Origin: Owenia fusiformis
Taxonomy: Eukaryota
Length of the DNA stretch: 64,000 bases
Direction: 5' to 3'
NCBI GenBank assembly: GCA_903813345.2
Contig: CAIIXF020000001.1
Span: 15,872,001 to 15,936,000 of the forward strand
Made by a program: the position numbers and the translations under genes. Below the pieces are notes generated by a model. That model saw only the letters and a program-made list of their open reading frames with translations. It was not told the origin of the DNA and made no database searches. This document shows positions 6,167 through 39,900 of this stretch, in pieces; position 1 is the stretch's first letter, and the number at the start of each line of letters is the position of its first letter.

Positions 6167-16756
<10,590 letters not shown>

Positions 16757-18900: not shown

Positions 18901-21900
18901 TTAATCTTTTTTGTTTTCTATTGCTTTGGCACCGTTCTCAGTCTCTTTCTTTAACTTCTCTTCTTCCTTTTGTTTCTGTTCATCTACTAAAACCTTCCAT
19001 TGTTTTAAATTAGTGCTGCAAGAAAAATTACCATCAGTTAAAAAATGAAGTTTGTAATGTGTCATATTACTTGATAAACACTTAAACAATTTAATATTAT
19101 CATAAACATCTGGAAAATCAGATTACTCCTTTTAATTTTAGATAAAGACTATTTGAAAAATAAAGTTTCCTTATCATGTAAAAATTACTACTTCTACTTT
19201 GTTCGATGAAAAAAAGAGTTATTACTCTTGTCTCATATGGGTACAATCTTTTTGGGACACCCTGTATATGAATTCATGTAATTGGCGTTTTGTTCTGTTC
19301 AAGTTGATTTGATCATGTTTCCCTTTCTACTGTGTCATTAAGAAAATTCCAGTTTCAATGGCAGTAATAACATCAAAGGGGATTCTCAACAATCTTGCAT
19401 TCAAATCAGATTTGTCCTTTTAAAATAGTTTGTAGATATTTATTCGGAAGTCTGATTTTAAAAAGCATATTGTTTTGATAGTTCCGTATTATCTAAGTAA
19501 TGCAAGTTGAGAAGTTTTATTGCTTATCATGCTTATTGAAGGTAACTGTAAAAACTTACTTAGCTCCATCCACCATTGGTTGTGTACCTGGTAGTAGGTT
19601 GGCCAGGAGCTCATAACATGGTAGGCATATGCCAACAATGAAGCCCACCTAAAATACAAGCACGGACATTAAAAAACAAATACAAATACACAAAACTAAT
19701 TTCTTATAATATTTTGTTCAAGTGGATGCATCTGAAGCATTTTAGATTCTGTTCTGACAATTTATTAGTGTTAGAATATAATCAATTGATGCATATACGT
19801 TTCAATTACATACGTTTTCCTTCCAAAAGTTTGTATTCTAAGTAATTGTTAACGTAATTTTATTCATTAGTAATAGCAATCTTAAGCAATTAATCCATTC
19901 TATTCACACTTTTAATTAGTTGTGCAAAGAGTGATTGCGGAAATGCATACGTGTTCGTCTTCTGTTAAAAAGATTGCTTGGAATGCAGGGAATTCGTTTC
20001 CTCATGACCGTTGTACTATATCTAGTAGATGTTCTCTTTGTCTTTACCTTAATGGTATGTGACACTTAATTAGGACAGTTCTTGGCTTATCTTAAGGTGG
20101 ATTCCGGTTATGGCATTGACCCGGGGTATTGATGGTTCAGAAAAAGGAATCAAAACCTGCCTAAGATTTCTCCTGATAACCACTGTGAATGATTGTGTTT
20201 TATTGTGAATACTAGTACATATATCTAGAACTATTCCTTATGTGAAGATCACTGTATTGTTTGTTTATAACTAGACTCTGCGCGCAGGGTAGAGTATTGC
20301 TCGTCATTTCTAATTTATTCTTCAACCTGCAATTCTGCATTGCAAGGATCCGCAGTATGAAAGAAATGTTACTTGGTTTTGTGGTCTTAGATTGTGATAA
20401 CCGTTCCAGAATGATAGGGACGGATGTATGACCCATTGTTGCTGTTGTTGAATTTTGTGTATTTTTGCCACAGAAAAAGTGAAATTTAAAATGTAAGTTA
20501 GCTAGAGTGACATACTTGTCGTTTTCTTATTTCCGCATATGTATGATTGTAATTTTAGTGATCTCACTTATGTATCGTTGTGAAGTCCGAAAATAGCACT
20601 GATCGAATCCGAGCACTTATTTTATCTTAAAAAGTGTATAGTAAAAGCACTAAATCTATTTTACATTGGTTCTTAAGTTTATTTGCCATAAATTGTTAAT
20701 ATATAGCTAGTTAGTAATTAAATAGTAATTTTAAGCAATAAAACCAACATATTCACACTATCAATTAGTCGTGCAGAGAAAATACAAATTAGTATGTGTT
20801 CCACTTCTGATAGAAAGATACGTATCAATTTCTATCTCTCTAGTTTATATCCAAATATTAGTAATACCGCTTGCTAAAAGTTGCAATATTTTAAAATAGC
20901 CTATAAGCCAATTATGTGGCCATATATCGACCCCAGTATGTTGCTCTTGAGCAGGATTATTTGGTGCACAAATTTTAGATTTTGTATGGTGGTTAGTAAT
21001 TCACACTGGCACTCTTATCATAAAATCCTCCCAGAAAAGAGCACGTGAGACAGTGAGAAGTATACCTCCATCATCGGTAACTCATCTGATTTAGTCCGAT
21101 CCATCATTGTTATTGGTGTTTGACCCTGATTCTTTTCCTCATCGCCCTGACAATGTATAACCCAATCAAATTGTTTTAAACTCAATGTGATGACTACAGC
21201 ACCACATATACTTGTAAATAACATCATGTGTATCGATCATGATGCACTCACATCTTCGACCAGTTGAAAAAACTAAACAGTAGTCATCGGTCAACTGAAA
21301 CATTGGTCAACTGAAAGACCTAAACAGTAGTCATTGGTGAACAACATGCATTCATAGTACGAATACTACACATCTGCTTTGGTCGACCACAAATTACAAT
21401 TATATTTTGGTAATTATAACATGTTAGTCTCATTGAAGTCGAACAAAAGCAAATGGTAATATTTATAACGATCACTGTATCATCTACCTGACTCTGCGGT
21501 AGCTCATGGGCTTTGTCTCGATCCATCATTGGAATGGGTTGGTTTCCTTGTGCCTTCTCTTCATCACCCTATATAATAATATGATTAGTACGACATAGTA
21601 TTGTCTTTATATCTAGTAATTATACTTTTAAACATTGTAAATTGTGATTTCTGAAAGGAGGAACACTTTAAAAATCAAAATCAAGTCTTTATCATGCATG
21701 TAGTGAAGAAAATTGAAATACAAACAAAAATAATTGACAGCCTTTAATATTTCATTTCAGGAATGCATGACTAACTTTCACAATGTCTGGTTTTTAATAC
21801 AAGTATAGAAGTGGATTAATTTTGTCTGCGATATTGTTCTTCAAACATAATGCCTGTCGTTCTGTACCACTGTACATAAATATGTGTCAAATGAAATACA

Positions 21901-24900
21901 CGTTTTAAATACACTGAAACATTAACAGCACCATCGTATAGCAGCCTACAACTGAACACAACACAGCAACTACGTATACACACAATATTTCTGTTCGGTT
22001 GCACATTTATCTAACCTGCACATGCAAGAATGTATGGCCATTCAAAACGCTTTGCGTTTTTGTATTTAAAAAATCAAGATTTGTCAGACTTACGTCATGA
22101 AACGTACATTGAGATTAAAACAATTTCAAATAATTTGACAGTTGGTGCAGATTTAACAAAATGCTAGCAACAGTCCTGTTACCTTTGGAACACACTTTAT
22201 GTTTACGAGTTCTTTGATCCCTAAATTTTAAACACAATCATGCAGAACTTTTTGAATGGCTCCAGCATATCACTCAAAAAAGGAATATCAATATAACAAT
22301 AAGATTGCACTTAGAAGTCAATTAATTTAAAGTTCACATACTACAGAAAATGATGTATTTTGTTCAGTAACCCATCCCCATGATACAGCAATTTTGCATT
22401 TTGCGCCCATGCTCATCTTAGATATCAGATAGTTTTATGCAAAATATACGAAAATAAACGTTTCACTATCAAATAAGAAGATCTGTCTTTAATACCTACG
22501 TTTCTTATACTACACTGTTTTAACTATAAATGGTCAATACACATCTATTACATATAAAGCAAACCTGGCACCAAAATTCCTCCATAATAATAAGGACAAG
22601 TTGCTTCTGTAGGTCCCATGGCTTGTACATTGAGCAAAGATCAGCTGCTGTCATGCTGATACCCATTAGCAATTTTCTAGAAGCAGGTACAACATGGATA
22701 CAACATAACTAAATCATTAACTACATGGTTCTAACAACAAAAAACAGAAAATATCTCCTGAAATACCTCCTGTTGAAGAACCACAATTTTTGTTACGTCG
22801 AGTCAGTATTGACATTGTTCTGATTCCTATTCGCAAATCGCTCGAGTGCTTTTTGAGGTTATTGTGGATTTTAGCAAGGTGCTATTTTTAAGTTTTATTT
22901 TAGATTTAAAGTGTGCGCCAAAGTTTAAAACTGCGCAGGCGCACCGCTCTCGCTAACCTATATAAAGCGATTACCGAGTACAGGCTTCAGAGGTAAGCCA
23001 GGAAGGTGAACAATCTTCGTTCCGTGTTGATTCCCCGTATAATCGTAACCAAGTAAGTTTCACCATTGAAATTAAAAATTACTATTAGATATAATTTGTA
23101 GATGTTATTTATGAAGCTATTGAGTGTATGCATCAATCAAATGGCTCATTTTAAACATATCAAAAGTATTTGTGTTTTGTTTCCCAGGGAATTGTATTCC
23201 CATATAGTACACACATAAATAGTGTACATTATGTACTTGAATAGCCTGGTTTACATAAATTGAAGGGCATGCTGATTACATGCACACGAGTACATGAATG
23301 AAGGCCTGATATTGATATAGCTTGCATACCTAAACAAAAAATAAACTCTTCTAATCCCCTAATGTAAACACGGCGGTATACGTAGCCCGATTTATCGGGG
23401 GCTTTAAGGACACCTGTTTAACTCTATTATAACTTTACAATTTCCAAGGGATTTAACCAAATTTTGAAGAAAGCATCAAGAAATGTGATATTACAGTATC
23501 AACGTATTAAAAACAGTGGTTCTGCAACAGAAGATAAAACCGTAACGGGAGGTATTTAGAATTTTTGGTTTGACACTAAAAATGTGTACAGTAAATAAGT
23601 GAGGAAATGTAACCAGAGCAAGACAAACAGTGTATGTGCGTTGCAGGGTGAACTAATATTTTTTGAGTTATTTGAATGTGGATATTTTGTATGTGGCCAT
23701 TGCGATGTCTCTGGTCATCATCATCTGTGAATTTCGAAACAGATATACCGTAAAACAGGAATTCCTTCAAACAGCCACTATATTGTATATGCATACGTTA
23801 AAGCGGATGATTAATTTTCAGAGTTTAACAGTTCATTCGCATTTTCCATACACATTTCCAAATTTGATATCACAAATCATATTTTGCTTGCCATTACAAC
23901 CACCCACTCTCTGAAAATTCCCATTATACATCGATCCCACCAATATTTACCCATTGCAATGTATACTATTACCATTTTATTGCAAATTGATTTCCAATTT
24001 TAAGTTTTATGATACGCCTTCTCAAACCGAAATGACCGAGGATCGATTAGAATAGGCGACTCATTTATTGGGATACCCAGTAGGCTTACCCTGTACATGT
24101 ACAATATAATAAGACTATTCCATCGGCTGTCTTTTCATAAGAAAACGCATGTATTTGGTGATCTCCAAAGGATGCACATTCTGTGACAAAGGCGTAGTAA
24201 TATATAATATTCACATAGATACTCAAAGATCTCTGCAATATGATTATGATACATTATTTGTCTGGCTCAGATTACCATGAATATATAAACTTATAACAAA
24301 TACAATGGTTGCAACTGAGACAACTATTTGTAACAGCATACCAAGCAAGTAAAAGAGTCGAGTTTAGCAATTGATGAAAAGCATGGGATGAAGTAATGTT
24401 TGTGCCTATAACCAATAATGAAAAAGTGGGTATGTATTTACTGATATTGTAAGACATGATTTACCATTGCATATAAAAATCTAATGAAACCATGCTTCCA
24501 CGGCGCTAGATGGCACTGACCTACCAACTAAGTGTAACTAGGGACATATCAACGTTCATAGGGTTGTCCAAATAAGTCGATTACAAAAACATACATATAC
24601 ACGCCGCACTAAACACTGATTATAAGACATTGCACAAGTTCACAAAATAAAATGTAAATATGACTCTCTGTTGTGTTGTTCTGTTTGTTTTGGTTTGGTA
24701 ATTTGATTAACCATTTCACCACAGCACATTTATATTAACATTCATGACAAGGAGGTCGAGATGAGACATTTGAACATACAGCGTAGGATTATTTGAAGTT
24801 TGGCCACCGTTAAAACTATTTCGAGCACAAAAATGAGGAAATTGAATTCAAATGGTCATACCACGCATCATAATATGAAAAACACCAATTGCAGTGTTCT

Positions 24901-27900
24901 CTTCAGTATGTATCATTTATCATTTGTAAACTATTATAATGTCCTCTTTTACAGCACATTGACTACTGATGAGTTTGTGCTTTGCCGTGGTGTTATACTT
25001 AATCAAACCTATTCGGAAAACAAAGCCACCCAGAAGCCTATTGTTCGTAAGATATTTCCCCCTGCACATTTACACGTGTATGAAGCCAGCATGCGTGGTG
25101 ACAACATTTACATCACATGTCTAGCTAGATTTGAACATACAAATTATGCATGCATAGCTGATACCTGTGCGTAAAATTCTTCAAAAATTATCTTGACTGT
25201 GTCGACTTGCATATCCCATGGTTTGGTACTGGCACATAGATCACAGGCAGTCATCGCAATTGCCTTGGCAAATGACCTATTTGAAAGCACGGCCAAATAC
25301 AATAAAGCATTCACATTCTGTTTGTGTTTATTTGATCACTGCATTACACACAATAAATCAAACCCACTGGAATGAAGAAGTGCAGTGAGGAGAGATAAAA
25401 TGAAATGATAGACAGAGGTACGACGATCAGGGCAATCATGCAAATACACTTTTCTAGTTTTGAATACCTGGGCATAGAACTCCTCGAAGATGACCTTGAC
25501 TGTGCTGACCTGCACTTGCCAAGGTTTGGTGCTTGCACAAAGGTCGCTAGCCGTCATGGCTATAGCCTGTATCAACCGCCTAAGTAAGCATAGATATTGG
25601 AGAAAATAGCTCTTCAATTTGAATTTCGAAGTCAAAGTAAAAGAATACTACAGTTTTAACTTCAGGTTAGATAACGGAAGTTTCACAAGAGGAACACACC
25701 AGTAATATATAGTTTACTAGGTCAGAATCAAGACTACTAGAAAAGTATTTAGAAAGATACGCATGATTATAATTTTCTTATAATAATCTTTATAATACAA
25801 TTGTGTGGATGTTTACTTTTTTTAACATTTTTAATAAAAATGCAGAATGACACTAACAGACCGAGTTCATAATGAGTGCAAATAATTTTAGATAATAAAA
25901 TATAACTTTAATTTCACAAAATACAGATTTCACCTCAATTTATTTCATACTAAAATGATAATTTTATTAAAATATGTAACATTGGATCGAATTTCCATAC
26001 CTGTGGTCTTGGGCTTCCCATGAAAACTCTTTCTTTTCACAAAGATCCTTTAGTTTCGCCCTGTTGGGGAAAAACAATGCCAGATCTGTGGCCAGGATAC
26101 AATGTTTGATGTCACTTAAGACTTTCTTGTATTCATCTGATGTCAGGTGCTTGAATATATTGTGACCATCACGCTGCAAAATGGTGGAAATAGCTGAATG
26201 AATAATTGAAATAATTGAATTAAATAAACTTTTTCTTACCATTCAATCATTATATTTTACAGTTCATACATTTCTGATATAACATTTTGCTCCCCATATT
26301 TTTCGCAATTACAATAATATGAATTGAATACAGTTATTTGACATGCATCTAAAATAATAATCATAATCAAACCTTAGAACAAAACGCAAACCGGCTACAC
26401 AGGAATCAATGGTAAGATCAAATATGGTAGATTAAAACTCGAGGCTATATACAGTTGATCCTATATGTGTTTATTCCTTTCAACTTACCGGTTGATTTAA
26501 TATATGATAACATGACCAGATAAATTTTCTTTAGGCCAATAATAAATCAACATATACATGCAACACATTTCAGTTAATGACGAACACTTAATTCCCTATT
26601 CAACTGTGTACTACACCTGTTTTGAAATCAATAAATAGACTAAAAATTAACGTGTTAAGCAAACATTATGACAACACGTTTTGATGTATATGTAAAGGTT
26701 TTGACATTGTGGTCACTCTGTAAATGATTTTGCATTGCATTGCATTGGTTAAATAAAATCATTAAAGCATACCCCATTAAAGCATTCCCAACAATGACAA
26801 TATATAACAACACATGCGATGAATGGTACAGTTCTTACTTGTAAGATTGAGATGGTGTGATTAAAATGATGTTGTTCCATAGTTGAAGTGGAGTATATGG
26901 CTGCTAGGGGACTCGCAGTCTTCACCATGAAGGCATTTGTGTAACCCCGGTGATCAACATCGTGACAGAGGCATGCAACAAACAATGCCAGTCGCTGCAA
27001 CATCAAATATGGGTTCATGTGACCGATACAACAGCTCATGGTTACAACATATTTTGGGTGATACCCATGCATATGATTGGATGATCACACTGCATTTTCA
27101 TATTTCATACCATGGACATGAAGGAATGGATAGGAATGTTTAGGGAACTGGTCTCTCCAATTTAGTTTTGTTTTAGCCCAATAGGCCACACAAAATGGGT
27201 GAGATTACTGAGCCAGCGAAAGATTCCAAAACATTTCCTCAAGTTTATTCATCCATTTTTTCTCACATTCCATACGTGAAAAGTGTACAACATAAATATC
27301 CTGCTTCCTGGAAAGAATGCTATGAATTAGTAAGGTTGTGAGGTTGGAGTTTGGGTAACATAAAGCGTGATACCACATCCCATGCACAATTCGGTTATAC
27401 CTTGTGTACATGTACATTCACAATACCACAGGGTATGTACCTGTAGGATAGTCACTGTCATATTAAAGTGGTGGTGTTCCATAGTTGATGTGCTATATAT
27501 ATCAGCTAGAGGAGAACATGATTTCACCATAAATGAGTTGGTCTTCCCTCTGTGGTCCAGATCGTGGCATAAACATGCTACATACAATGCCATATTCTGC
27601 AAAAGTACTACAAGTGTGGGGAAATATTTAACAGACGAATGAGAGGGAGATACTTTAAGCCAGATTTTGGAGCGTTTGTCCATTCTAAAAGTATGCATAT
27701 ATGTTTTTCATACATCCTAAATTTTCGTATCATGTCCAGTGATACTTTGATTTGGTTAACAGTGATTCAATTAGGCTACTTTTCTGTTCTTTTTTCTCAT
27801 CGGATCTACAGCAAAAGACATGGAGCTGCAAAACACTACATAACATTCATGTAACATCGAAAAAACGCAATCAATTCAGCATTGGGACTGATTGAATCAT

Positions 27901-30900
27901 AGTATTTTACTAGTTTCATACAGCATAGACTAACTGTAGTTTACACGAGCTGATGATTTTATGTGCAATTGGGGGTACCACTTGTAAGTATATCAGGACA
28001 TGTCCTGGGTGTTCCGTATTACCGTCCATATTTTCGGTTATTTGCAAATGTTTATTTGTTATTTCTAAAGATAGTCTACTATAGTATAACTTATATAGGC
28101 AATTTTCCACAGTGATTATCGAGCAATCATTTTGCACAAGATTCCTGATTAATGACCTAATTATCAGGGTCAGTGAAATAAAATCATTACCTCAAGAGGG
28201 TTGAATATATTGTCCGTGGTCTTTATGACAGTGTACATGGCGTGGGCGACCGAGAAAGCATGGCTCCAATTGTGGTATGGCACATTACGATAATTCTTTC
28301 TCACAGTCAATGTGAACTTTATCAAACTGCTAATGTCGAACCTTGAAATAATAATATGCTAAATTGATATATAATTGATGATTGTTTATATGGTTAAAAG
28401 TTATTTCTGCATATCAAGAATTTGAAGACGTGCTAGACCGATTGATTTATGTGTATGTTATATAATATATTACAGAATGCACTGTTTGCACAGGAGTTTG
28501 ATTTTAACCCATGGTAATATTATAATGAACTGTACCTAAATAGAAAGAAAACTTGAAATTATTTTATTACAAATGCCTTAAATTCATTATAGTAAATGTG
28601 TATGTTTGTTAAAATGAAGAGACAATATCTACACGTCTAGTTTTAAAACGGAAAACATTTACGCATAAAGATAAATATTGTATTGGTCAAAAATACCAAT
28701 AATTATTGCTATTAAATAATAAATTAAGGTGTTTGTAACTACACTTTGATTACCCATATGAAACATTTATATATAACTTTAAGTACATAAATAATGCAAT
28801 AAAGCGCCCTAAAATTTTATTCTATGCACAGAAAAAGCTGATAAATCCTAAAATATAACTATTCACATTATACCTTTGGTCCCCCTCTTGGTCGCTATTA
28901 TGTGAAATAGTATAATTGAAATGTTTAATATTTGTGAAATCTACAACAATCCTTTAAGTAAAGGAGCATGGAAGGTATTGCAACAGATTTCAGACAGTCA
29001 TATGTTGGATTTTGCCTATTTTGGGAGGATTTGTACAGGTGCATATGCTAGGCCAATGCATAAACTCCATGACAAGCACTCATAAAGATGATAGAATAAT
29101 TGACTCTGAGACAGGAAGGGTGCAAACACCCCACCAACACGTTTTTCCTGAAATGTTGTCCTAATTTTCGGCCCTTTCCACCCCTGTCTCTTCAATGCTC
29201 GATGCATATATATGTTGCGTTTTGAGACAAAGTTAACCTCTTAAAAGGAAAATGGATTCATTTGGGATAAAGTGGAAAACAATATTTCCCATGTTATTTT
29301 CCCATAGGGAAAACTCATGCGATCCATTGTTTTCAGCTTGATTTTGGTCACCTATAAACCCCTGCATGAATCCTGTTTTCCTTTAAAGAGGTTAGCGGTG
29401 TCTCTAAACGCAACATACTGATGCATCAAACATTGAAAAACAGGGGTGAAAAGGGCTGAAAATCAGGACGTTTCAAGAAAATATGTTGTTGGGATGTTTG
29501 CACTATCCCTGTCTCAAAGTCCAAATCGTTTTATCATCTCTATAAGTGATTGTCCTGGAGTTAATGCCTAACATATGCACCTGTTCCAACATATGACTGT
29601 CTGAAATCTGTCGCGATACCTCCCGTGTTCCTATAAAGACAAGTCGCTTTTTACAATACTCATAATATTTATAGTAATTATGCTTGGGAGATTGCTCTAC
29701 TGGTCAAAATAGGTCTAATATCATTAAGACTAATCCTTCACCAAATTTGTGTTGCATTATCTCTCAAACAAATGGTAGGCATATGCCTCAGTAGTTAACT
29801 GTTAAAACAATATCAAACAACACCAGGTATGGATTACTTGGTGCTTTGCTAGAATTACTACTCTGTAAGGACAATGATTTGGTGAGAGGGCAGAAAAAAA
29901 TATATTTAAGATTCTACTATACCTTGACATGTTGAAGATGTCTTTGAACATGTACAGGACATACTGGGGCTTGTCTTCATTCAATACTCCCCATGGCGAG
30001 AATTCGTATCTAACAAATACATATGCATAGGATTTTAATGACAGTCATTGGGTGATTGTTTCTAGTATCAGTCAATTTTAATTTTGTAGGCGTTCTAGGG
30101 TTTGTTCCTAGTTTAAATACGCTTCTACATATCACTACAACATCTGCATTAATTATAGTAAGTTAATTGTATAATTGCGTGCGTTTCACAAAACTATGAC
30201 TCAGTTGTAAACTAAATGATAAGGAATCCAAATATATTAGAATTCTAATGTGTAACATCCTCCTAACGTAGGGTTCCAGATCTAGACATCATCCACTACT
30301 AGATTGAATGACATCCGGCACCTTGCGTTTGGAGGATGAATGTGCAAATAATGCAATATCAAGTTATTATACTGTAGTATTGGTTATTTCAACTCACAGT
30401 GTGACATCAGGTAGTGTTGTGGGTATGACTCGGTCTTTGTATTGAGAAAACTCATCTTCTGTGCATTGGCTATGGTAGGATAGTACTTCAAGTGCAACCT
30501 TGTGTTTTTGTTCAGACCGACGGATTTTATCATAAAGCTATAATGTAAATGCACTTCGGTTAATTCAAATCTGTTATGCAATCCTGAATGATGGGCGAAC
30601 ATTGTTTCTAATGCGTTGGATCATAATTGGGGTACTTGGGTTTGTTGACTTGTTTCTTGCCTTCGTCTTAATACACTTGGGTTCTTCTTATGTCACTGTG
30701 CTAACATACATGTACCATATAAAGTGAAACCGGTAGTGACTGAATTACTTCTTCTGTTATTTTCTGTTTTAATAATCATTTTATAGATATTCATGATTTT
30801 ATTTATGATTTTCTGTCAGTTGCCTGGGGATTTAAACAAGAAACTAGTTGCAACGAAATGAAATCATCTTATGTTTTTTATTAAAATGTTATTACAGTAA

Positions 30901-33900: not shown

Positions 33901-36900
33901 CTATATTATATTATATTGTATTATACTATACTATATTATATTATATGTCATGCCAAGATTGTGCATCAAATATCTGGTTTAGCTTATGGTCAGGTAATTA
34001 CAGTAAAAACAGAGTGATACTTTTTATTAATAATGAATTTACACGTTGACTCATCGAATAACCACAAAGATTATCTACTTTATAAGCGAGAAGTAATATC
34101 TACATCTGCTCTTGAGAACAATTATCAAAATGGACAGCTCTAAGTTGGTGTACTTATGTACCTGTTGAACCTGTCATCGCCATAAGCATCAGAGATGTTG
34201 AGAGTATTACCGGTAGTCGCTACATGACCAGCGATTCCCTTGTCCATTGGAAATCTAAAAGTAATTGAATTGCATGATTAATAATTGTAAGATCAAAAAA
34301 TTAAAAACTATTATATATGGGTTATCAACACAATGAATAATCTTGATCAAATGATATTTAATCATAAAAACTGTTCTTTTCACCACAAATGATAAGTGAA
34401 GTATAACAGTAGTGGACAATACAACAAATAGATATAGGTGAATGATAAGGTTCACGTTCTTGCTTTTAATCATCGACTACAAATGTAACACCATTTCATT
34501 GAAGTAATGTGTGTACAGACGTCTCGTATTCAACCATATCACAGGATATGCCGCAATACATTATTCATGTACAATATTGATAAAGGATTGATTTCAACAA
34601 CTGACAATGATTGATCAATAAAATATAGTGTGGAATCAATATCGCTTTCATCTTCATGCCATATCTAGTAAATAGACTACGTGTATAACAGACGCGTTGC
34701 AATGGTTGACCCTGGTTAATAGATACCCTTAACCCTCAGTCACATAATATATCGGAAGCACTGGTACCCACCTGGTTATAAAGACGTAACGTAACTTGAC
34801 AAAATGGATAAACTTCCGTCGGAGGAGATATTGATTTCATAATAGTAACACCCAGTTACTGAAAAACTACTTATCAGTAACGAGCAAATATATCCAGCAG
34901 CTTCAATAATCAAGTGAGAATTCCCTCACTTCAGCATCCAGGACATAATTGGATACAAATCGACCTCTTTCTTGGTGCAATAAACATTTCCGCCGACGGA
35001 AGTTCATTCATTTTGTTATGAAGACGTTGCGTCTTTATAACTAGGTGGGAACCAGTGGTAAGGTCCACTTTTAGCAATGTCAACAATTTTACACTGGGTT
35101 TTCTGACTAGAAAAGATGGCAGGTCGCAAATACAGGTAGTATGTTAAAAAATTACATACAAATGAATATGACTATCATTCCTGTATCTTTTAGAAAGCAA
35201 ATGTTAACTAGTAATCTGAACCTGACCTAATTTCTTTTTGTTGTCCATCTACAGGCTGAGCACCCAAACCGTTGCCTATATCAAATATCCGAGCGTATAA
35301 TTCTTTTGTTTGGTTGTCAACCAGGAACAGTGATGCTCTATCAGCATTTACCAATTTTTGAGCAAAGTTCTGAAATATAATTTTTAACAGTTTACTTATT
35401 TATCTATTTATTTATTTACTATACTGTCCAGTGTCCAACCTATGATACAGTCTTATCAAACTCCTCCTTTATATCATTTTACATTTTGTAGGATGAAGAA
35501 CATCAAAATACTCTCTTATTTTGAAAGCGAAATCGTTTGTATATTATAAAATACCACTCTATACGAATCAGTATACTGTTAGGCAATTGCAATTTAAACA
35601 GACGAATGAAATATTCTTAATAATAATAATAAAACTATATTCCACTCACCATAATTTTCATGATGACTGTGTCCATGCTGACTATATCTTGGAATATCGA
35701 CCTTAAAATATAGTTATATAGAGTTGTACATATATCTAGATTAAGCCAAGTTTTAGTTTTTGATATTACAGGTGAAATAAAACCAAACATAACAATGTTG
35801 TTACAAAGAATTATTTAATATATATTTTGAATAGGGGAAAACATAAAAATTTACATGTAATAAGAAATGTCAAACCAAAAACATGTTTTTCCGACTAACT
35901 TACTTAGTGACTGCGAGTAGAAACTCATTCAGCTTTCGCTGTTTTGTCATGCCGTGATACATCTGAAAGTAAACGATTTAGGTAAAAGTTACCCTTTGCA
36001 TTCACATGACTTTGCCTCTCAAAAGAGAGCTTCGTCTTTTAGGACATTTCAGCTGGACTCTGCGCATAGGGGAGGTAAAAATCATTGGATATCATTCAAA
36101 ACAATAATCACTTAGCTTTACAAACTAGTTTTATTTGACTATGAGTATTCTCGTTAAAATTTTACTTTATAAATTTAAACTTAGTAAACTCAATGCAAGA
36201 GAAATATCATGACTAACAGGAAACGCTTTACAAATAAATATACATACATAACTCACTCGGTGAAACATGATACAAACAAGAGTTACACACGTAAGATTCT
36301 ATTCAACAACTCAGAAATTAATTAGAAATGATAACCAAATCAATGTCTGTGACATGTGTTCTTTTCTAGGGTATAATTTATATCTGTCATAGTCTTTCAT
36401 TTAGATCTAATCAACAAATTGCTTTACGAATCATAATTCAGGATGAAACTAATCTTGTTCATTACATTCACTTAGGAAAGCTTTCATACGTTCACCTTTG
36501 ATATTTTCTCTTCAGGAAAAAATAGAACCACTATATAATTTGATAGGATATAAAACACTATATTGCCTAATTAATCATTTATTAAGCTAGGTATCATATG
36601 TTGAGAGTGATAGGTAAATAACATTTAACAAATAAATTCTCAGTTTTTAACTAATGATACTAGTAATGAAATATACATGAAGAATGTTAGATTGTGTAAA
36701 ATACTGGTTCAACCATGAATGCAATTTTTCCTCACAGATTGAATGCAAGGTTTGAGAATACATGTGCAAGTATAAGCATGGCCTGTGGTGCTACTTGTTA
36801 TCATTTACATTTTCTATGATGCAATATACATATTGTAAAATGAATGATAAATTGGAGTTGAATTGAAACTAGGGCAGTCAAATTCTATAGGAAACTTTTA

Positions 36901-39900
36901 GTAAGGAACCTTAAAGATCTATTTTCAGTTCAATAGTACACTGATCGAAATATGGAAGCACAGGTGTCCAAAAGGGGAAACGATCAAACAGTATTAAAAC
37001 ACGGATAGAAAAAAGTTTAAAGAGAACAGGCCGAAGCATATCCCCAGTATGCCAAAAATATCAAACTAAATGAAAGAATATCCTTTTGACTGCTGATATG
37101 AAATTATAAATATTTTATCATGCCAAAGGGTTATATATAATATCATAGTATCTAATAAATGATTTTGGGAGCCACGTGAGAAATATATTTGATGCAGGAA
37201 AATAAGAAAGTGGAAATGTTTGCCACTGAAATTTCCTTTCAATAGAAGAGTAACATGCATATTTCACAATCTTGTATGAATGAAATGTTCCATGCTTTTG
37301 TCGATATGGAGTGTTCTAATGATGCTTGAATCATGGTTTGTGCATAAACATTGTTTCTTTTGCACGTTAGATTATTATAAGGGATATTGGGGGTTGGTCC
37401 TTGTGGGTTATATGTTCATTTTTCTAGTGGTTTGTAATACTCTCTGATCTTCCCCTTTGTCAATTGTGCATACATATTTACATCCATTACTATAATGACT
37501 GCAAATCTTGATTTCCACATTACTCAATTTAGAGGAGGTGCTTGCATCTATACATTGATTAATATGTAAACAACGACATTTAAACATAAACAACATCCAT
37601 ACAACTATAGCATGTTTAAGATCATGACTACATTGTATATCTCTTGTGGATTAAATATCCTTATCACATCGAAATACCTCCGCATTGTAGATTCCAAAAG
37701 CTCCCCATACCAGTATACTGTTACAAATCTGCCAAATATATGCAAAAATTAGTTGGGAAAGCGAGCAGCAAGATAACCCAGGAGTAAATGTTCAAAGCCA
37801 AACTAAGGAGGAAAATAAAACAAAGCTCGGTTGTAACAAAAATGAAGCCAGGTCGGAAAAATTATAAAACCATATGAAAAATAAGGGGGTTGCAACATTG
37901 CTGATCCTGGAAAATGGCCAATTGCCACTATACGGTTTCATTATTTGGATTGACTATAAGTTAAGTATTATCATCAAATTGATAGCCATATGCAAATATG
38001 TGGGGAGGTGAGTGGCAATTGACTAAGTTGTTTCCTCCCTAACTGAGCTTTGGGGTACCACAACAAATACCATCTACATAAGTAGAGCTATTTATTTCAA
38101 TCCTGGAGGATTCTGGGTTCCAGTAGAATGCGCATTGTGGTTTCTAAATTGACCTTGACATTTTACCTCAGCACTAGAAGTTGCTACTCCACCCCACATC
38201 AAAAAACTGCTTGTAATCTGGAATAGATGCAATGTATTACAATACAGTAAAGTGTTAGCACAACACAAAACTTATTAGTTATTTCTACAATGTTAACAAC
38301 ATTATTTCTAGGAATCCATGATAGCCGACAGATGAAGAGCGCCATTTTGGAACATAGTCCCTCTTGCTTGAAATGGACAGTTGGACATTAGAACTCACTT
38401 AGTTATGTATTTATGTAATCATTCAAAAGTGATCAACCTGTTTTGAAAAGCGAACTTACTACACAATTTGATGATTTGATTGAAAGATAATTTGAAAATA
38501 AGGATGTTTGATATTCGTCAAAAATTCCCGGAACATCGGAATAAAGTTCATCGATATTTTGAGCCACTGTCCTTCTCAAAGCAATAATAACAATGTTTTC
38601 GCTAACTCCTATATGCGGCTAATATGGTCACCGGTTGAAGCCAAGCACTAGGGATGTATTTTAAGCAAGAATGCATGTAAAGGCCTATGAGATAAAGCGG
38701 TAGAACAAACAAGGGGAAATTAGTCTGATTAAATAGTAATGTGCAATCATTACTAGTCAAAGAAGCTGCATCTATTGAAGTTTTTCATGTATCACCCTGT
38801 TACAAAAGGAAAATATATAGTTAGTTGGAAAAGACGGCTCATTATAAAGTAAATTCGTGTAATTATGAATGTAAGTTCCAAGCTTGTTATTGTACTAACC
38901 GAGCCTAGCACGTCTACGGGATCTACACCTAAAGCGGCCATTACCTCTTGGCATGTTAATAGCACCGGGCACCACTGGAGGGCGCTAGACGTCACCTGGT
39001 GGAGAAAACTCCTCAGTCAATAACTAGCACAACATGCAAAGCTTGGTGCACAACATCTAGCATTCTCAAAATACACAAGTTTGTCATACACTAGTACATT
39101 TTCAGAATCTGATATATGTTGAACACTTAATGCAGGAGAGCCTAGTCGATATATTAATCAGCCCCGTGAAAATTTGAAAAAATAAATAAATTATTTTGAT
39201 ATTCGAAAATAGAGGTAAAAGTGCTATCTAATCCTAGAAAGGTATATTATAAAGACGACTGATGAATGACAATATTATAGTCATCAATTTGATATTAATC
39301 AATATCAATTAATATTAATCACCAAGCCAATGGTTGCAAATGAAACACGAATCAAGAGAATGAGAACTTTTAACATATATTTAAAGTAGTCTAATCAAAG
39401 AATGGTGTGAAGTATAATAAAACATTATATATATATGTGATGTATATATATTATGTATAATAAATTCATTAGTTGATTGTGATATTTGATAACATAGAAT
39501 TATCATACACCACCATTGCTACTACGAGGGTTGTCCCAGAAGTAATGCACTATATGCTCTAACTTTATCAATAATTGATATTTTTTCATGAAATTTTCAG
39601 TAAATGTTCCTTAGAGACATTTTGATTATTCTAGAAATTTTCATGTTGACTGATAAAACTAATTTGATGTTATAATAAAATCAAGTTGGTGAGTTTGGGT
39701 AGGGCGGGGCAGGTTATACAGTCACGTCAAAAGGAATGAAAAATTGAAAATCTGAAATAATTAATCAACAAATACCATTTGATGTAGCTATGAGAAGTAT
39801 GCTCAAAAATACATTTTAAGATACTAAATTACTATGAGCACATCCTAGATTTAATGGATGTATATTGCACAGTGTCCCATTTCACATTTTCTCAAAATAT

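Follow-up and report, generated by a model that had tools for sequence, protein, structure and literature searches.

Can one phosphodiesterase (PDE) gene, by exchanging small exons, yield two enzymes that differ at the very residue by which the purine base of the substrate is recognized? This question is raised by a stretch of 64,000 nucleotides from the annelid Owenia fusiformis (assembly GCA_903813345.2, contig CAIIXF020000001.1, positions 15,872,001 to 15,936,000; the whole stretch is called here the window, and positions are counted from its first letter), in which stop-to-stop open reading frames (ORFs) and Pfam matches reveal a class I PDE catalytic domain split over many small minus-strand exons. 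Two of these exons, named Y-a and Y-b, end at the codon for the purine-binding glutamine, which is called a hallmark, invariant residue of class I PDEs (PMC7720076 and PMC5617230) and is the anchor of their substrates and of most of their inhibitors; Y-a keeps this Gln, and Y-b replaces it with Glu, thus lacking this feature of class I membership. We favor, with a probability of about 0.6, the reading that the purine pocket of the Owenia PDE10A orthologue is laid down in duplicated alternative exon clusters, and that the Glu form is an active enzyme whose purine recognition is changed.

The duplicated pocket exons

We identify the gene, by its match to a known protein, as the PDE10-type gene of Owenia fusiformis, or a near-identical one, on the minus strand, because a tblastn comparison with the O. 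fusiformis protein P0005 (884 residues, found by a protein search with a constitutive exon) showed 100% identity in the exons, from 58773 down to 18904. P0005 carries GAF (PF01590/PF13185) and then PDEase_I (PF00233) domains, and the latter profile was matched by nine of the ten ORFs submitted, seven of them above the 24.8-bit cut-off, with the two short Y-exon ORFs scoring 18.0 and 18.4 bits. PDE10A was the top match in the PDB for the exon with the HD motif (E 4e-18), for Y-a and for the constitutive exon that begins with VGF and supplies the clamp Phe (the VGF exon), the exception being X-b, one copy of the exon upstream of Y, which reached 26.8 bits with PDE6 and 21.2 bits with PDE10A. The metal-binding motifs (HNxxH, HDxDHxG, the Asp of TxxDL and E..HH) are all present in the Owenia exons, X-b included, and the hydrophobic clamp is kept as well, with Ile at position 30 of all three X copies and Phe in the VGF exon.

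The preliminary description of this locus, made from the letters alone, had noticed two minus-strand exons ending in ...ELPQSQ and ...ELPMME, with further changes of QS to MM and of PIP to PIT, and the translations bear this out: Y-a (21488-21568) and Y-b (21066-21146) are 81 nucleotides (27 codons) each, with AG acceptors and GT donors and 65% nucleotide identity. It had also taken the last residue of these exons to be the invariant Gln, three residues before the clamp Phe, which agrees with a contiguous alignment to chain 3lxg_A, where Y-a falls on 238-264 (ending ...PQGQ) and residues 2-26 of the VGF exon fall on 266-290. In chain 5uwf_C, adding 445 to the chain index yields Ile711, Met713, Met714, Gln726 and Phe729, as named in PMC8979230. 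Because the chain alignment and the residue numbering fit, Y-b is placed by alignment as an exon putting Glu at the Gln726 position of PDE10A. The likeness of Y-a and Y-b is not due to chance, since both match PDEase_I at identical profile positions (182-213) and align to identical residues of the PDE10A chains.

The exon upstream of Y is present in three copies of 112 nucleotides. X-a1 (25468-25579), which is the copy in the annotated protein, and X-a2 (25165-25276) are of a first type, A, with the pattern AIAMTA.DLCAS.KPW...VIFEEFY.Q, and X-b (22565-22676; ...IIMEEFWCQ), with the metal-binding Asp and the clamp Ile in place, is of a second type, B, with the pattern SMTA.DLC.MYKPW...VIMEEFW.Q. 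A tree built from 94 distinct X exons unites those of type B in one clade (100/99), in which Owenia X-b stands with exons from molluscs and from a nemertean; the orthology of the module of X and Y exons is taken from this X-exon tree, as the 27-residue Y exons are too short for a tree of their own. A further cluster is formed by the HD-motif exon, with a proximal copy (26839-26994, CHDVDHRG), annotated and found in spliced contigs, and a distal copy (27441-27596, CHDLDHRG), which is predicted from its equal length of 156 nucleotides, its AG/GT splice sites and its 67% nucleotide identity to the proximal one. In the Y, X and HD clusters, all copies have equal length within their cluster and AG/GT splice sites. 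Inclusion of both Y copies would keep the frame and add 27 residues, whereas inclusion of two X copies would shift it.

Concerning the distal HD copy (...MEHHHFN), it is closer to mollusc sequences than the proximal one (...MEQHHFN), and in run X1, described below, its bin has a depth of 44.3, compared with 8.9-10 in neighboring intron bins, with no joint among those listed; this distal exon may be part of one alternative module with X-b and Y-b. X-a2 is spliced upstream to 26001 in the same run (joint 25276/26001, depth 197.5), and the listed contig then continues without splicing into the intron downstream, up to 24282. An inverted repeat of 21 nucleotides (21168-21188 and 22106-22126), 95% complementary (RNA duplex energy -20 kcal/mol), has its first arm 22 nucleotides upstream of the Y-b acceptor and its second arm in the intron between X-b and Y-a, such that pairing of the arms would loop out Y-a. 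This is weak evidence: the match of 20/21 was exceeded by none of 40 mononucleotide shuffles, whose maximum was 19, a small margin, and the second arm is itself contained in a hairpin-like repeat (arms 22037-22071 and 22226-22260) that may be a mobile element.

Splicing of Y-b and conservation of its Glu

Transcript evidence comes mainly from run X1, a set of contigs whose library type is presumed to be RNA and for which 15 of 33 joints are listed. Its intronic contigs have a depth of 115-213 between 19.7 and 25.4 kilobases and of 9-44 further upstream, an unevenness that fits pre-mRNA better than DNA. The joints of X1, bounded by CT..AC and written here as the two positions brought together, are 19015/19560, 19648/21488, 21568/25468, 25579/26001, 25276/26001, 26173/26839, 26994/28191, 28339/29921, 30009/30398 and 21146/22565. 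Together with the tblastn match of P0005, they delimit the last coding exon with its stop codon (18901-19015) and, with Pfam in addition, the constitutive catalytic exon that precedes the X cluster in the gene (26001-26173); they also set the VGF exon at 19560-19648 (89 nucleotides), which corrects by one letter the 19561-19648 given before.

The joint 21146/22565 connects the upstream end of Y-b with the downstream end of X-b. Y-b is thus a genuine, spliced alternative exon, as the preliminary description had proposed. In the spliced contigs listed, Y-b is joined to X-b, and Y-a is joined to X-a1; Y-a has both of its flanking junctions, Y-b has the upstream one, and no joint connecting Y-a with Y-b is among the 15 listed. 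The earlier claim that both copies join the VGF exon therefore holds for Y-a (19648/21488), and for Y-b what is listed is the upstream joint. The word depth of the contigs was 206.5 for 21146/22565, 1686.2 for 21568/25468 and 2174.5 for 19648/21488; that is, the contig joining Y-b to X-b has about one tenth of the depth of those joining X-a1 to Y-a and Y-a to the VGF exon, word depth being a poor measure of abundance.

Is this Glu a peculiarity of one genome? Out of 120 listed PDE10-like proteins, 109 could be parsed at the site, and these comprise 82 with Gln and 27 with Glu followed by VGF. The named proteins among the 27 all belong to gastropods, bivalves or a second annelid, Paralvinella palmiformis, in whose gene model an exon with Gln and one with Glu lie in tandem. 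Glu was found in all parsed isoforms of the gastropods Pomacea (9/9), Haliotis (15/15), Babylonia (7/7) and Patella (9/9, of 10), and in all parsed isoforms of the bivalves Mytilus (24/24), Ostrea (15/15) and Saccostrea (15/15), these isoforms being predicted models that are not independent, with 15 cluster members listed out of 59 for Mytilus, 30 for Crassostrea, 21 for Saccostrea and 18 for Ostrea. In Crassostrea virginica, one contig gives ten isoforms with a divergent Gln exon and two with the Glu exon. Gln is found in the nemertean Tubulanus (12/12), in the annelid Ridgeia and in the cephalopod Argonauta. When a catalytic domain with a type-B X exon and Glu was used as the query against 1.84 billion proteins, the best 150 representatives had Gln in 144 cases and Glu in three, with the remaining three not covering the site. 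Of the Glu proteins, 30 were checked for the catalytic motifs, and all 30 have them intact.

Glu is thus conserved in the orthologous exon of molluscs and of the second annelid, and this conservation shows that the GAG codon of Y-b is not a variant private to Owenia and did not arise from an assembly error. As far as sequence comparison goes, Glu at this site is a trait that lophotrochozoans have in this single PDE family.

Two related observations concern other animals and proteins. Four echinoderm proteins from sea urchin and starfish (P0004, P0014, P0018 and P0039) have two versions of the X exon, ANTKPW...VIFDEFY and AV.KPF...FEEFY, both with Gln, which points to an alternative-exon pair in the corresponding position that is either independent or older. 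A further Glu relative is P0235 (660 residues, ..NLPKLEVQF), one of whose exons resembles type B and whose M-loop carries an insertion.

Purine recognition by the Glu form

The X and Y exons together cover nine of the 12 residues that PMC8979230 lists for the pocket of 5UWF, namely Leu675, Val678, Ile692, Tyr693, Phe696, Ile711, Met713, Met714 and Gln726, when position p of X is numbered as PDE10A residue 662+p and position p of Y as 699+p. The same paper is the source, by a secondary statement, of the hydrogen-bond pattern of PDE10A with cyclic AMP (cAMP) and cyclic GMP (cGMP). The preliminary description had argued from Y alone that the pocket was remodeled rather than hit by a single mutation, and the remodeling proves to be wider than it claimed, because Y-b is spliced to the alternative upstream exon X-b. 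Between the Owenia form with type-A X and Gln (A+Gln) and the form with type-B X and Glu (B+Glu), residue 678 changes from Ser to Met, 679 from Thr to Tyr, 693 from Phe to Met, 697 from Tyr to Trp, 725 from Ser to Met and 726 from Gln to Glu. Among 284 parsed proteins, which are not independent, Leu occupies position 725, immediately before the Glu, in 105 of 105 Glu proteins, and Met is found at both 678 and 693 in 94 of these 105; Leu before the Gln also occurs, in 15 proteins.

According to the favored reading, splicing would make two enzymes from one gene, a canonical A+Gln form, which is the major one in X1, and a B+Glu form in which positions 678, 693, 725 and 726 change together to Met, Met, Met or Leu, and Glu. 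The Glu form would be a catalytically active PDE with changed purine recognition and inhibitor sensitivity. Lying in a more hydrophobic pocket lined by Met and Leu, its Glu might be largely protonated and neutral, and the shift to Met and Leu around it fits a raised pKa, on inference only. A neutral Glu, like Gln, would be both a donor and an acceptor of a hydrogen bond, its polarity being changed by the move of a proton instead of a flip of the side chain; the resulting isoform would discriminate less between cAMP and cGMP and would be sensitive to pH. Should the Glu be charged instead, a lower affinity for both nucleotides would be expected. We lean toward a protonatable Glu because a neutral carboxyl suits both bases and because of the fit of the Met/Leu shift with a raised pKa. 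The full form of this proposal, a proton switch in which the buried, protonatable Glu makes lophotrochozoan PDE10 dual-specific, with affinity gated by pH or local electrostatics, and in which annelids and oysters choose between the two states by coordinated splicing of the pocket exons, is put forward tentatively, as a possibility with the odds against it.

Acidic residues read guanine in guanylyl cyclases and in cyclic-nucleotide-gated channels. A charged Glu in the PDE pocket could thus accept hydrogen bonds from the N1-H and N2-H2 of guanine, which would make the B+Glu form cGMP-preferring, as had first been proposed for this exon. The chemistry is plausible, the score of X-b is a little higher with the cGMP-specific PDE6 than with PDE10A (26.8 and 21.2 bits), and the residue preceding Glu is Leu in all 105 Glu proteins, yet it is also Leu in 15 proteins with Gln. 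What decides us against a simple guanine preference is the laboratory mutant Q453E of PDE9A2, the one measured Gln-to-Glu exchange at this site that we found in the literature consulted. In the report on it (PMC3069055), the Km of this mutant for cGMP rose 25-fold, from 0.113 to 2.8 uM, and that for cAMP 2.5-fold, from 501 to 1233 uM, with the cGMP/cAMP selectivity falling from 337 to 29, so that more affinity was lost for cGMP than for cAMP. Moreover, the Gln contacts the edge of the base formed by N1 and the 6-substituent; a carboxylate there would face a single donor and a single acceptor whichever the base, and therefore no base preference would be expected without a shift of the base. We consider the guanine preference doubtful, and the evidence does not support it as first proposed.

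The same report bears on the favored reading, that of an active Glu form with changed purine recognition. The Q453E enzyme was active, with about half of the kcat; its kcat/Km for cGMP was down 50-fold, one selective inhibitor lost potency by a factor of more than 1800, and the authors propose that Glu406, a neighbor contacting the mutant Glu453, is protonated. The role of the "glutamine switch" in discriminating cAMP from cGMP is disputed (PMC3069055).

Could the Glu isoform be instead a weak or inactive subunit that dimerizes with the Gln form or buffers nucleotide? Its minor share of X1 (206.5 versus 1686-2174 in word depth, which measures abundance poorly) and the 50-fold loss of kcat/Km for cGMP in PDE9 (PMC3069055) would agree with such a role. 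We judge it unlikely, however, because Glu is the sole form in all of the gastropod isoforms examined: an inactive Glu form would deprive Pomacea, Haliotis, Babylonia and Patella, and also Mytilus, Ostrea and Saccostrea, all of whose examined isoforms have Glu, of an active PDE10-type enzyme, and the metal-binding motifs are intact in each of the 30 Glu proteins checked. A Glu pocket tuned to some other nucleotide (cyclic IMP, CMP or UMP) would explain why several pocket residues change together, this being the sole point in its favor; given that the purine-stacking clamp residues, equivalent to Ile692 and Phe729, are unchanged, we regard it as extremely improbable.

A number of points weigh against the favored reading. 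No joint between Y-b and the VGF exon (21066/19648) is among the 15 of 33 listed for X1, the sole listed contig over the Y-b donor (20263-21149) is unspliced there, and the spliced support for Y-b comes from this one run, with its presumed library type. In runs X13-X15, which come from the same species and are recorded as RNA, the depth over the gene is at most 1.8 in the part read, and there is no joint for either Y-a or Y-b; the few reads in the Y-b and X-b bins are too few to interpret. Both annotated Owenia proteins (P0005 and one cluster mate) use Y-a, and no protein with three words in common was retrieved when the Y-b ORF served as the query, a weak negative given that clustering at 90% merges isoforms and that the contig fragments are short. 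The coupling of X-b with Y-b in Owenia is read from the listed joints and, in the wider set of parsed proteins, nine of the 105 Glu proteins have a type-A exon and 28 proteins of type B have Gln, so that the coupling of type-B X with Glu appears to be frequent but not obligatory. The isoform counts of the molluscs carry the dependence and partial listing already given. Finally, the protonation, activity and selectivity of the Glu form are argued from sequence and from the PDE9 analogy, and in that precedent the same exchange weakened binding and nothing more.

These transcript data raise the alternative that Y-b is a relic in Owenia, visible as splicing noise or as unproductive intron-retaining transcripts, and that the Glu exon is used by molluscs only. 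The unspliced contig over the Y-b donor has indeed a depth of 149.4, about that of intronic contigs (115-153), and neither an annotated Owenia isoform nor a database protein with Y-b was found. Nevertheless, Y-b has retained an open frame, an unchanged length, canonical splice sites and the conserved motif residues despite the old split from molluscs, it is precisely spliced to X-b, an intact orthologue of the mollusc type-B exon, and the second annelid retains both exons, for which reasons we hold the relic to be very unlikely.

Relation to known systems and other features of the window

Human PDE10A (3LXG, 5UWF) shares with the Owenia protein the tandem GAF domains followed by the catalytic domain, the metal motifs and the clamp of Ile692 and Phe729. 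It differs from the Owenia gene in that the latter has alternative copies of three catalytic exons, with the combination of Glu for Gln726, Met for Tyr693, Met for Val678 and Met for Gly725. The PDE9A2 mutant Q453E shares the replacement of the invariant Gln by Glu and is a folded, active enzyme, but it is a single laboratory substitution, made in a cGMP-specific family and next to an acidic neighbor, Glu406 (PMC3069055); in contrast, the Glu form described here is natural, hydrophobic residues of its pocket vary along with the Glu, and selection has maintained it in two phyla. The orthologous gene is also represented by mollusc RefSeq proteins named "probable 3',5'-cyclic phosphodiesterase pde-5" (among them P0006, P0011, P0013 and P0033), with the type-B exon and Glu followed by VGF. 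In these the Glu exon is the main or only annotated form, whereas in Owenia it is unannotated and minor, and the residue before Glu is Leu in the mollusc proteins and Met in the Owenia form. By analogy, the closest functional counterpart would be the a/e exon pair of coq-2 (exons 6a and 6e) in helminths, annelids and molluscs, where mutually exclusive exons of the same length also remodel the core of an enzyme and change its substrate; the enzyme and its chemistry are different, and the consequence has been shown genetically for coq-2 and is inferred for PDE10 (PMC7434440 for coq-2).

We found no description of a natural Glu at the invariant-Gln site in the literature searched, a search that covered neither subscription journals nor supplementary files, and the mollusc Glu proteins are in public databases as automatic predictions only. 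The current annotation of the Owenia gene misses a catalytic-site isoform. Natural pairs of Gln and Glu isoforms from one gene would offer matched enzymes for testing the disputed glutamine switch and, if the proton switch is true, would put the glutamine-switch model to a direct test. It is also predicted that PDE10-type inhibitors that bond to the Gln would act differently in these molluscs and annelids.

Some features of the window lie outside the pocket exons. Two intronic stretches, 22792-23673 and 28966-29847, have a depth of 25-75 in all three of the runs recorded as RNA, with silent flanking exons, many loose ends and many variant letters, and are probably transcribed repeat families that are not part of the PDE gene. 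The tblastn comparison with P0005 gave, for one exon, a second match, 43% identical, involving 35650-35808 and 37672-37731 on the minus strand, just upstream of the next exon; in the GAF region, too, an exon may thus have a diverged copy. Downstream of the 3' end of the PDE gene, open frames on the plus strand at 13858-16756 suggest a convergent neighboring gene.

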